From NCBI RefSeq assembly GCF_988243305.1, contig NZ_OZ547136.1: a DNA stretch of 64,000 nucleotides; one strand, 5' to 3'. This document shows positions 5,069-52,197 of this stretch, one piece after another; the stretch's first letter is position 1, and every line of letters begins with the position of its first letter. The translations under genes were made by a program, and so were the position numbers. The notes beneath the pieces are model-generated. The model ran no database searches. It saw nothing but the letters and a program-made list of their open reading frames with translations, and was not told the DNA's origin.

Positions 5069-5156
5069 TGGCGGTGAGGGGGGGATTCGAACCCCCGATA
5101 CGTTGCCGTATACACACTTTCCAGGCGTGCTCCTTCAGCCACTCGGACACCTCACC
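5069..5156 (-). tRNA. serX: tRNA-Ser (GGA), serX
   Basis: Reverse complement reads GGTGAGGTGTCCGAGTGGCTGAAGGAGCACGCCTGGAAAGTGTGTATACGGCAACGTATCGGGGGTTCGAATCCCCCCCTCACCGCCA: 88 nt, long variable arm, CCA end. Confidence 0.95.
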
Positions 5157-10701: not shown

Positions 10702-11455
10702 GATGAAACCCCGCTTTTTTTATTGATCGCACACCTGACAGCTGCCTCTAAAATAGAAGCACCAGAAGTACTGACAGATGTTGCACTGCTGTGTGTAGTA
10801 ATAAATCAGCCCTAAATGGGTAAAATATAAAACTAATGGATTACATGTGATTTCAATCTAGCCATTACAAATCTTAAATCAAGTGTTAAACATGTAACTA
10901 AATGTAACTCGTTATATTAAAATGTTAATCTTAAGGTTTTGTTAAGTTTAGAAATGATAGAAAAGTTGTACATTTGGTTTTTATTGCACAATTTTAAAAA
11001 ATCATACAAATGGTGCTAACTTACTAATAATGCATATAAAAAATATTTCGGTGTAGTCCTTTCGTCATGTAAAACGTTGTTGTTTTTTCTTCACACCTCC
11101 GTGGACAATTTTTTACTGCAAAAAGACGAGGTTTGTCACGGCTTGTGCGCAAGACATATCGCAGCAATCAGCGACGGGCAAGAAGAATGGCTGTCTGGTG
11201 ATTTTTGATTGCGGAAAACGGAGATTTAAAAGAAAACAAAATATTTTTTTGCGTAGATAACAGCGTATTTACGTGGGTTTTAATACTTTGGTATGAACAA
11301 AAAAAGAAAAATACAACGCGCGGGTGAGTTATTAAAAATATTTCCGCAGACATACTTTCCATCGTAACGCAGCGTTAACAAAATACAGGTTGCGTTAACA
11401 ACCAAGTTGAAATGATTTAATTTCTTAAATGTACGACCAGGTCCAGGGTGACAAC
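10702..11455. promoter_or_regulatory. csgD-csgB divergent intergenic control region
   Basis: ~750-bp AT-rich non-coding stretch between divergent csgD and csgB starts; known multi-factor regulatory region. Confidence 0.8.
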
Positions 11456-16728: not shown

Positions 16729-20911
<4,183 letters not shown>

Positions 20912-20919
20912 AAACGTAG

Positions 20920-21015
20920 TTGCCTGATGCGCTACGCTTATCAGGCCTACATCGCTCCTGCAATGTGTTGATTTTGCAAGATTTTGTAGGTCGGATAAGG
21001 CGTTCACGCCACATC
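20920..21015. repeat. REP/BIME palindromic elements
   Basis: GCCTGATGCGCTACGCTTATCAGGCCTAC and GTAGGTCGGATAAGGCGTTCACGCC REP-like units downstream of opgH. Confidence 0.8.
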
Positions 21016-21039
21016 TGGCAAAAACAACGAGCCAATAAA

Positions 21040-21068
21040 AATACCGGCGTTATGCCGGTATTTTTTTA
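21040..21068 (+). terminator. Rho-independent terminator
   Basis: Hairpin TACCGGCGTTATGCCGGTA followed by T7. Confidence 0.7.
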
Positions 21069-21083
21069 CGGAAGAGGTATCAA

Positions 21084-21311
21084 ATGCGTTTAATTGTGGT
21101 GAGCATCATGGTGACCTTGCTGAGTGGCTGTGGCAGCATCATTAGCCGCACTATACCGGGGCAGGGGCATGGCAACCAATATTATCCCGGTGTGCAATGG
21201 GATGTGCGTGACTCCGCCTGGCGTTATGTCACAATCCTTGATCTGCCATTCTCCCTGGTTTTTGATACTTTACTGCTGCCGATCGACATTCATCATGGCC
21301 CGTATGAGTAA
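21084..21311 (+). CDS. yceK: Lipoprotein YceK
   Basis: 75 aa; lipobox LLSGC. Confidence 0.88.
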   Translation: MRLIVVSIMVTLLSGCGSIISRTIPGQGHGNQYYPGVQWDVRDSAWRYVTILDLPFSLVFDTLLLPIDIHHGPYE

Positions 21312-21686
21312 TTAACGTTCATCCCACTCATCAGCTGCTGCGCGTCCTTCCTCGGTATCCAGCGGTGGCTCAAGCTGAAATTCCCCCTCGCCCCATTCAT
21401 GTAATGTATTCTCTTCCTGCCACTCCTGGCGGATCTCTATCTCATCATAGTCGCCATCAAAGACACTTTGCGCGGCTTCACCGCTAAGCATAGGTAAACA
21501 TTCACCTTCTTCCCCTTCGTCGGCAAAAAACTCAACTTGCCACATGATGTCGCCGTCCTGCAAAACGTATTTTTGGGCATTGAACTGTTGCACATTCGCA
21601 TCTTCGGCGTCGATGCCGGGGTTGTCTGCAAGAAATTCTTCGCGTGCAGCGTCAATGGCTTCTTCAAGCGTTGCGTACATGGTCAT
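21312..21686 (-). CDS. msyB: Acidic protein MsyB
   Basis: 124-aa highly acidic ORF (MTMYATLEEAIDAAREEF...). Confidence 0.9.
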   Translation of the reverse strand: MTMYATLEEAIDAAREEFLADNPGIDAEDANVQQFNAQKYVLQDGDIMWQVEFFADEGEEGECLPMLSGEAAQSVFDGDYDEIEIRQEWQEENTLHEWGEGEFQLEPPLDTEEGRAAADEWDER

Positions 21687-22995: not shown

Positions 22996-23166
22996 AGCAA
23001 TCCGCTGTTGGTGCGCCAGGCGCGGTGAACATAAGAAGAAAAGATAAGCACACTAATTATGCGCCCGACTTCCAGGGGGCGCAATCCAGAGAGCTTTTAT
23101 CGCTAAATCAGGGGGATTTGCTGTGGTAATGCCGGATACCCTTCTGAAGCATCCGGCATGGGAGAT

Positions 23167-25364: not shown

Positions 25365-25405
25365 ATATCATTGCCGGATGCGTGTCATCCGGCAACATTT
25401 CACTC

Positions 25406-30115: not shown

Positions 30116-30220
30116 TAATCTCTATGCTCCGGCTGAAGGGATGTTTTTGCCGGACACAAAGGATAAGCGGAAACGTTTTCCTTTGCACGAAAAATAAAGG
30201 GCGCGAATGCGCCCTCGTGA

Positions 30221-42062: not shown

Positions 42063-42180
42063 TTAAACGATTGATGACATTGCAATAAAAGCGCGCGGAC
42101 TATTCTCTCGCCCATTTTGGGAGAGGTTAGGGTGAGGGGAAATGCGCACCGCCGCGTGCTTCTGCTCTGCTTGTCACTAA

Positions 42181-42981
<801 letters not shown>

Positions 42982-51836: not shown

Positions 51837-52197
51837 CGTAACTTACTCATTATTCTTACATTGACGACTAAGCTGCGGGCAAAGTAACGCCTTTCCGGGT
51901 GTGAACCGATGGCCTCGTGTCTAGTCGCGTCGCCAACCTCACGGTTATCGTCAGCTCAAAGAGGCGCAGAGTGTCGGTTGCCCGTTTTTCATGCGGAAAA
52001 ACAGCGCAATTATCAAAGAAACAGACTGGGTATTACTCTCCAGAAATATTTCCATCTACCGGTAAGGACTGCAACCCGCAGCCCGCTAACTGCCTGAAAG
52101 ATCAATACGTCTTACGCCATTGCTGCGTGGATGATCGGTCGGGCAAAATGGGTTATTCCGTAAAATTTCTTGTTTTAACAAGGATGGACACGGAAAC
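51837..52197 (-). promoter_or_regulatory. rne 5' untranslated leader (autoregulatory in K-12)
   Basis: Long non-coding region upstream of rne start, divergent from rluC; extent taken from K-12 knowledge and is approximate. Confidence 0.6.

Follow-up and report, generated by a model that had tools for sequence, protein, structure and literature searches.

Two REP sites after opgH and between rluC and yceF are known E. coli elements, a BIME-1 with a predicted IHF site and a short-linker REP pair

REP and BIME elements, an enterobacterial repeat family described since 1984, are built from imperfect palindromes of 30-40 nt that can fold into stable stem-loops. The units typically carry a GTAG tag at the stem base and an internal stem mismatch, and are dispersed in many copies over intergenic DNA, mostly 3' of genes. 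In the window analyzed here, that is the whole stretch of 64,000 nucleotides (64 kb) to which all positions refer, REP units occupy two extragenic sites, both 3' of genes. Where the opgGH operon ends, site 1 separates the stop codon of opgH from the start of yceK, which is encoded on the same strand. Site 2 separates the stop codons of the convergent genes rluC and yceF. RefSeq annotation under the matches names the genes flanking site 1 as mdoH (opgH) and yceK and those flanking site 2 as rluC and yceF, in agreement with the open reading frames in names and orientations. The original prediction had placed REP units at convergent or operon-end positions, after opgH (20920-21015) and between rluC and yceF (53398-53472). 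Both placements hold: the units of site 1 are real and lie at 20921-21020, the predicted range stopping 5 nt before the second stem ends, and the range proposed for the equally real site 2 is that of the K-12 element REP101 after conversion of coordinates. Site 1 and its surroundings comprise the following features.

20909-20911, stop codon (TAA) of opgH
20921-21020, site 1, after the opgH stop, a complete BIME-1 (= RIP = RIB)
20921-20950, plus strand, short 30-nt Z1-type REP (TGCCTGATGCGCTACGCTTATCAGGCCTAC), the plus-strand 3' end of which is CTAC
20951-20985, 35-nt L linker between the Z1 REP and the Y REP
20943-20985, minus strand, match to Rfam RF02751 (ES036/CssrF 'sRNA'), comprising the L linker and the GTAGGCC start of the Z1 REP
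20961-20973, minus strand, predicted IHF site AATCAACACATTG, an exact match to the consensus WATCAANNNNTTR inside the L linker
20986-21020, plus strand, Y-type REP (GTAGGTCGGATAAGGCGTTCACGCCACATCTGGCA) with 5' GTAG, an 11-bp stem, an AA/AC internal mismatch and a UUCA loop
21037-21067, plus strand, intrinsic terminator with stem AAAAATACCGGC / GCCGGTATTTTT, a 12-bp perfect inverted repeat (21037-21065) with a T-run to 21067
21084, ATG of yceK

The Z1 REP, an exact match to CTTATCAGGCCTAC, has a stem that begins at 20922, 10 nt past the opgH stop, and its hairpin (-13.9 kcal/mol, z = -3.5 against shuffles) shows only a one-base asymmetry per side. The Y REP folds at -15.0 kcal/mol (z = -3.4 against shuffles) and aligns with the Y hairpin of Rfam naRNA4. 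Both units carry the GTAG/CTAC tag; they are inverted, with their GTAG ends toward the linker and without tandem repetition, and in RNA they are able to pair with each other across the linker (-41.9 kcal/mol). Downstream of them, the hairpin at 21037-21067 (-18.2 kcal/mol, z = -4.5) combines a GC-rich stem with a U-tract, as expected of an intrinsic terminator, and the A-tract upstream of it would enable it to act in both directions. This terminator was shown by folding, as a simple terminator scan missed it on the plus strand because its A and T tracts pair mutually. The scan gave a minus-strand site at 21048-21031 instead. Since all of site 1 precedes this canonical intrinsic terminator, it is part of the opgGH 3' UTR.

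A BIME-1 consists of one z1 and one y REP, present in single copy and joined by a long conserved L linker, often with an IHF site (PMC3333891, Ton-Hoang et al.). Site 1 shares with this class (also called RIP or RIB) the inverted z1 and y units in single copy, the L linker with an IHF consensus and the location at the 3' end of a transcription unit. Judged by its sequence, it is a BIME-1 in every testable respect, its IHF site being a predicted one. The linker agrees at 27 of 35 positions with the family consensus AAGGTTTCTGCAATATATTGAATTTGCAcGATTTT, which was derived from 69 linkers of 35 nt at other loci and in other species among the matches listed, and 35 nt is also the modal linker length (71 of 131 elements among the matches listed). 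The predicted IHF site is one of seven exact consensus matches in the 64 kb. Across the family, conservation of the IHF core is visible only with the relaxed core TCAAN4TTR, which occurs in the same orientation in 72 of the 91 linkers of 34-36 nt among the matches listed; the strict consensus is scarce (3 of 129 family linkers among the matches listed). None of the differences between site 1 and the BIME-1/RIP class is structural. Its linker reads AATCAA, in line with the strict IHF consensus, where most family linkers read ATTCAA, and compared with K-12, its Y REP shows a U-G pair and a changed bulge.

Site 2 is organized differently, with a much shorter linker.

53366-53368, stop codon of rluC
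53397-53474, site 2, between convergent rluC and yceF, one inverted REP pair with a 13-nt linker
53397-53431, plus strand, left REP (GTTGGCCTGATAAGGCGTTTACGCCGCATCAGGCC), 35 nt, with a degenerate GTTG tag, an AA/GC stem mismatch and a UUUA loop
53432-53444, linker CGCCAGCACCGAT(T), which aligns with the linker of naRNA4 (the Y-linker-Z2 unit of REP325)
53445-53474, plus strand, right REP, a short, nearly perfect palindrome, GCCGGATGCG-ACGTAAC-CGCATCCGGC
53480-53482, minus strand, stop codon of yceF

The element takes up most of the 111-nt spacer. Its nearest REP lies 23-31 nt from the rluC stop, and on the minus strand the stem of the right REP begins 8 nt past the yceF stop. The left REP is the more stable hairpin (-24.7 kcal/mol, z = -5.6 against shuffles); the right REP, with GCCGGATGCGACGTAACCGCATCCGGC at 53445-53471, forms a perfect 11-bp stem (-20.9 kcal/mol, z = -5.0 against shuffles), and its near-perfect palindrome makes its orientation ambiguous. 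The GTAG tag reads GTTG in the left REP and is missing from the right one. The REP hairpins are the sole strong structures in the spacer (-51.9 kcal/mol on the plus strand, -54.3 on the minus strand), and a scan of both strands of the rluC-yceF spacer returned neither a U-tract terminator-like nor a promoter-like site. At both sites, all four REP stems lack a downstream T-run, unlike a Rho-independent terminator, in which a GC-rich hairpin leads straight into a U-tract.

Compared with Rfam naRNA4 (RF02564) and the BIME-2 of REP325, the site 2 pair (53400-53472) aligns over the full 77-position model of hairpin, short linker and hairpin, but its 54.9 bits fall under the gathering score of 59.5. 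It further differs in being a single unit with no tandem array, in its shortened right REP, which is without a bulge, and in its left REP, which joins a Z-like stem (T/A) to a Y-like loop. From sequence, site 2 would be classed as a single BIME-2-like pair with a short linker and atypical REP subtypes. Elements of the BIME-2 class consist of y and z2 REPs with a short S linker, mostly in tandem arrays, and are gyrase targets. Gyrase favors this class, and its cleavage falls on y REPs more frequently than on z2 REPs (PMC6379681).

Membership of the REP family was assessed with motif and covariance-model searches, both of which matched the REP consensus (GCCKGATGCG...CTTATCMGGCCTAC). The tail motif CTTATCMGGCCTAC, allowing at most two mismatches, occurs four times in the window against 0.37 expected (about 10-fold), a count that 0 of 100 shuffles reached, and three of the four matches fall inside the two sites. 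Zero-mismatch matches to the head motif GCCKGATGCGRCG occur only at site 2, on the minus strand of the left REP and in the right REP; allowing two mismatches, this motif shows no enrichment across the 64 kb (14 against 8.2 expected). Folding energies of the four REPs range from -13.9 to -24.7 kcal/mol (z = -3.4 to -5.6 against dinucleotide shuffles), and both 35-nt units, the Y REP of site 1 and the left REP of site 2, have an internal stem mismatch.

The covariance model (R1) was built from 61 Y-type REPs and run without filters over all 64 kb, where the four units of the two sites were the only matches with E < 0.01. Two of the four, including the Y REP of site 1 (54.4 bits), had served as seeds, so their recovery is built in. 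The remaining two had not: the Z1 REP of site 1 scored 33.9 bits (E = 8e-8; 20919-20950, minus strand) and the right REP of site 2 scored 17 bits (E = 0.0085; 53443-53471). Within the 61 Y REPs, 98.1% of cells are paired and three pairs are changed on both sides. Pair 6-33 has C-G in 48 copies and U-A in 5. The covariation score across the copies was reached by 0 of 500 shuffles, to be read with the caveat that the 5' arm is partly fixed by the search pattern used for collecting the copies.

Similar sequences abound in the species. A 271-nt query spanning site 1 and its surroundings (megablast) found 117,095 places, with a median of 17 per genome, and matched 5,425 of the 5,426 complete E. coli genomes, and an 81-nt query with site 2 (blastn) found 84,309 places in about 5,425 E. 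coli genomes, with a median of 11, both medians being lower bounds. Beyond the species, a scan of one genome per species for the Z1-linker-Y pattern (Z1-tail, 25-45 nt, Y-head) yielded at least 120 stretches, with E. albertii, Pseudocitrobacter, Kosakonia and E. coli among the matches listed; among these (120 loci), no opgH-yceK or rluC-yceF orthologue of other species was present. The expectation that the units would agree with a REP consensus was thus borne out by tail motif, head motif and covariance model, and their description as ordinary intergenic E. coli repeats is matched by 11-17 places per genome (medians) in about 5,425 of 5,426 complete genomes.

Two other identities were weighed against this evidence. 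Were the sites chance palindromes or plain intrinsic terminators outside the REP family, the unenriched two-mismatch head motif would come as no surprise, and GC-rich hairpins are frequent at gene ends. However, the tail-motif enrichment, the tens of thousands of similar places in E. coli genomes and the family-level matches to naRNA4 and to the covariance model refute such an identity, and the four REP stems, all without a U-tract, do not resemble plain terminators either; we see virtually no chance that it is correct. For site 1, the RF02751 match, whose 45.7 bits exceed the gathering score of 37.6, could indicate a minus-strand small regulatory RNA of the ES036/CssrF family. Yet among 14 unrelated BIME-1 loci scanned, counted as three genera (E. 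albertii, Pseudocitrobacter, E. coli), this 43-nt model also recognizes seven linkers, as well as those of both orthologous loci (K-12, clone D i2). The site 1 linker scoring above the gathering threshold therefore likens it to a family that in effect models BIME-1 linkers in general, not a specific gene. In addition, no promoter-like site was found near 20943-20985, a minus-strand terminator hairpin lies directly upstream of the match, and a literature search on ES036/CssrF returned no relevant paper. A small RNA gene at site 1 is thus very improbable, and the ES036 match should not be annotated as a gene.

Comparison with K-12, which had been proposed alongside the consensus search, confirmed that both sites are already known REP/BIME elements, present in K-12 at the same loci: the two spacers are orthologous and 97% identical, with the elements in place. 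Site 2 is the orthologue of REP101, which the supplement of Harris et al. (2026, bioRxiv 10.64898/2026.03.23.713779) lists at 1145929-1146003, convergent, yceF/rluC; the flanking genes are the same and the coordinates are equal after conversion. Its left REP is identical in K-12, one substitution lies within the REP pair and one in the 5 nt before the yceF stop, and position 53463, G here and A in K-12, restores a base pair in the stem of the right REP. At site 1, the Z1 REP is identical in K-12, whereas 7 of 70 nt are substituted in the L linker plus Y REP, with 1.0-2.2% for comparison in opgH, yceK, msyB, mdtG and lpxL. Two of the differences lie inside the IHF site and fall on N positions, the Y REP tag is GTAG here (restored) and GTGG in K-12, and the stem-region differences in the Y REP, a G-C pair changed to G-U and an altered bulge, keep the pairing. 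The site 1 substitutions are structurally mild.

Both elements are retained at these loci in more than 99% of 5,426 E. coli genomes, and lesions at site 2 occur in individual strains. In O157:H7 strain 2149, the left REP is without 11 bp of its left arm, and in strain Z142-1 an IS3-family element with a 3-bp GCC duplication sits in the linker. The latter is consistent with literature on REPs as IS targets (PMC1525189).

The two sites are not the only REP-like sequences in the window. Weak covariance-model matches at 23126-23160 (E = 0.046) and 25370-25396 (E = 0.065) correspond to K-12 REP98 (lpxL/mdtG) and REP99 (yceA/yceI), respectively, and are minimal REP-like hairpins. K-12 also has REP100, a degenerate BIME-1, in its flgF-flgG spacer; the corresponding spacer here (42063-42199) has unrelated sequence instead. 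This REP100-less flgF-flgG allele is found in 1,943 of 5,408 genomes, and the remainder match the flgG flank only. The names REP98, REP99, REP100 and REP101 are taken from the same bioRxiv supplement, the K-12 RefSeq record consulted having no repeat_region features. The original prediction was accordingly right about the REP/BIME identity and about both sites being real, and incomplete in two respects: it did not separate the two BIME classes, a BIME-1 with an IHF site and a short-linker pair, and the REP98 and REP99 equivalents also lie in the window.

As a discovery this is small; its worth lies in correct annotation. What is refined relative to the known elements are the site classes, the predicted IHF site, the nature of the ES036 match, the proximity to stop codons, the presence of REP98 and REP99 and the absence of REP100. 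In practice, site 1 is to be labeled a BIME-1 (RIP) with a putative IHF site, upstream of the true opgGH terminator, and site 2 a REP101 equivalent, the sole 3'-end structure open to the convergent genes rluC and yceF.

Taken together, the two sites are very probably ordinary members of the REP/BIME family at their K-12 positions, a single BIME-1 at site 1 and a short-linker pair at site 2, with a putative role at mRNA 3' ends. Their likely mode of action is drawn from published work on other REPs. Once transcribed, the REP units would fold into stable stem-loops at mRNA 3' ends, which may block 3'-to-5' exonucleases and pause RNA polymerase, leading to partial, Rho-assisted termination; at site 2, the hairpins could act on both convergent transcripts, and at site 1 the double-stranded DNA would offer a putative docking site for IHF. 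In support of such a role, REP325 is reported to be both a partly Rho-dependent terminator and an mRNA stabilizer (Harris et al. 2026), and REPs between convergent genes correlate with raised expression of both (bioRxiv 10.64898/2026.03.23.713779). In the supplement of this preprint, the left REP of REP101 (K-12 hairpin 1145926-1145969) appears with bidirectional terminators known from earlier work, and a Rho site mapped in vitro is given at 1146050-1146083, 47 nt past REP101. Against it, the same study reports no general half-life difference for REP-terminated mRNAs, as well as fragments of two to four hairpins without Rho dependence (bioRxiv 10.64898/2026.03.23.713779). The strong terminator hairpin downstream of site 1 would by itself protect the 3' end, so the RNA role of the BIME may be redundant there.

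Both elements were probably spread by a REP-associated tyrosine transposase; for TnpA(REP), movement of REPs has been demonstrated in vitro (PMC3333891). They resemble the REPIN/RAYT system in having two inverted REPs and a spacer. TnpA(REP) depends on GTAG tags and a stem mismatch (PMC3333891). Site 1 retains these features; site 2 does not, its GTAG tag being lost (GTTG or nothing). No transposase gene is present in the 64-kb window.

This origin invites the view that the elements are selfish or neutral relics of the transposase, residing in insertion-tolerant 3' ends of genes without notable local function. Besides the in vitro mobility, several natural variants speak for it: the site 1 linker and Y REP have changed more than the neighboring genes, site 2 has suffered the O157:H7 deletion and the Z142-1 insertion, and the flgF-flgG RIP of K-12 has been replaced by unrelated DNA here and in over a third of the genomes compared. 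Substitutions, deletion and insertion alike argue for weak constraint. Set against this are the retention of both elements at the same loci in nearly all genomes, the site 1 substitutions, which spare the stems (G-U pair, bulge) and hit N positions of the IHF site, the compensatory changes across REP copies, and the listing of REP101 as a bidirectional terminator. As a full account we consider relics possible though improbable; they are compatible with the preferred reading of the sites as REP/BIME members acting at 3' ends and do not exclude it. The other functional proposal concerns translation. According to Liang, Rudd and Deutscher (2015, as summarized in PMC12306157), ribosomes stall and translation drops where a REP follows the stop codon within 15 nt. 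A hairpin this close could likewise stall the terminating ribosome and lower the output of opgH and yceF, where the REP stems begin 10 and 8 nt past the respective stops. The argument for such a brake is positional. Neither gene was found in the searchable RepRanger and Ton-Hoang supplements, and rluC, at its greater distance from the REP, would be unaffected. Moreover, about 11% of REPs in RepRanger, and 260 of 496 in an earlier study, lie this close to a stop (PMC12306157), so the stop-proximal class is far from rare and yields no specific prediction for opgH or yceF. A brake of this kind is unlikely, and the bolder proposal that the stop-proximal hairpins of opgH and yceF serve as gene-specific translation-termination brakes and mRNA 3'-end markers at once is more doubtful still.

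If that combined role were true, natural variants would tune OpgH and YceF output across E. coli lineages while leaving promoters and coding sequences untouched, the candidates being the clustered substitutions seen here, the 11-bp deletion of O157:H7 and the IS element of Z142-1. More generally, the strain differences would fit current proposals that REPs add to regulatory diversity.

The BIME-1 downstream of opgH differs from its K-12 counterpart by a cluster of substitutions: positions 20951-21020, comprising the L linker and the Y REP, carry seven changes in 70 nt (10%), while divergence in the flanks of this stretch amounts to 1.0-2.2% and the adjoining Z1 REP shows no difference from K-12. 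Five of the seven substitutions are particular to the lineage of the window, as judged by comparison with clone D i2. The cluster could stem from gene conversion by another BIME-1 copy or, alternatively, from local hypermutability. Within the last opgH codons, ACCGGATGCGGCT (20890-20902) resembles a REP head, agreeing at 11 of 13 positions, and is repeated in direct orientation where the Z1 REP begins; the naRNA4 model gave a weak match at 20880-20947. This sequence could reflect chance or be the remnant of an older REP taken into the 3′ end of opgH.

On the other side of the BIME-1, only 16 nt separate the T-run of the opgGH intrinsic terminator from the yceK start codon (21067-21084), and a search of 20700-21400 for a sigma-70-like promoter found none. 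In a K-12 RNA-seq table, the mean count was 12,031 for opgH versus 275 for yceK, neither normalized for length (bioRxiv 10.64898/2026.03.23.713779). Expression of yceK may depend on read-through of the opgGH terminator or on an unusual promoter.

Between the convergent genes rluC and yceF, the REP pair has been altered in two other E. coli strains. The orthologue of 53369-53479 in O157:H7 strain 2149 bears an 11-bp deletion through which the left REP has lost its left arm; in strain Z142-1, an IS3-family element lies within the REP-REP linker, flanked by a GCC target duplication.

Comparison with K-12 also revealed a replaced repeat in the flgF-flgG spacer (42063-42199). At this position, K-12 carries REP100, a degenerate Z1-linker-Y BIME-1, whereas the window holds about 100 nt of unrelated DNA, including CTCTCGCCCATTTTGGGAGAGGTTAGGGTGAGGGG, that resembles a BoxC-type repeat. 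The same spacer allele occurs in 1,943 of 5,408 E. coli genomes, O157 and O111 among them; in the remaining genomes, the match to the spacer query was confined to the flgG flank.

Two minor hairpins were picked up by the covariance model built from Y-type REPs:

23131-23157, mdtG-lpxL spacer: GCCGGATACCCTTCTGAAGCATCCGGC, a minimal REP-like hairpin with GTAAT in front of it; weak match (E = 0.046); counterpart of K-12 REP98
25370-25396, yceA-yceI spacer: short hairpin GCCGGATGCGTGTCATCCGGC; E = 0.065; counterpart of K-12 REP99

According to the supplement to bioRxiv 10.64898/2026.03.23.713779, an in vitro Rho site lies 13 nt from K-12 REP98, and K-12 REP99, located between convergent genes, is in the list of bidirectional terminators.

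Rfam matches above the gathering score within the window further comprised:

5072-5156, minus strand: tRNA
10757-10848, minus strand: ES056 sRNA
30116-30165, minus strand: PyrC leader
51861-52197, minus strand: rne 5′ UTR element
54058-54226, plus strand: SraB sRNA

SraB starts directly past the yceF start, as it does in K-12.

E. coli BIME-1 has been described as single-copy (PMC3333891). The matches listed by the Z1-linker-Y pattern scan include tandem arrays of three to four units in E. albertii (L008, 6975-7478), Pseudocitrobacter (L054, 8823-9105) and Kosakonia (L059, 2553-2835), the E. albertii array having a 147-nt period and L-like linkers. A 262-nt contig (L056) filed under Desulfosporosinus sp. 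OT, a Firmicute, also holds a BIME-1 of the typical enterobacterial form, its L linker being canonical; the contig is probably a contaminant of that assembly.
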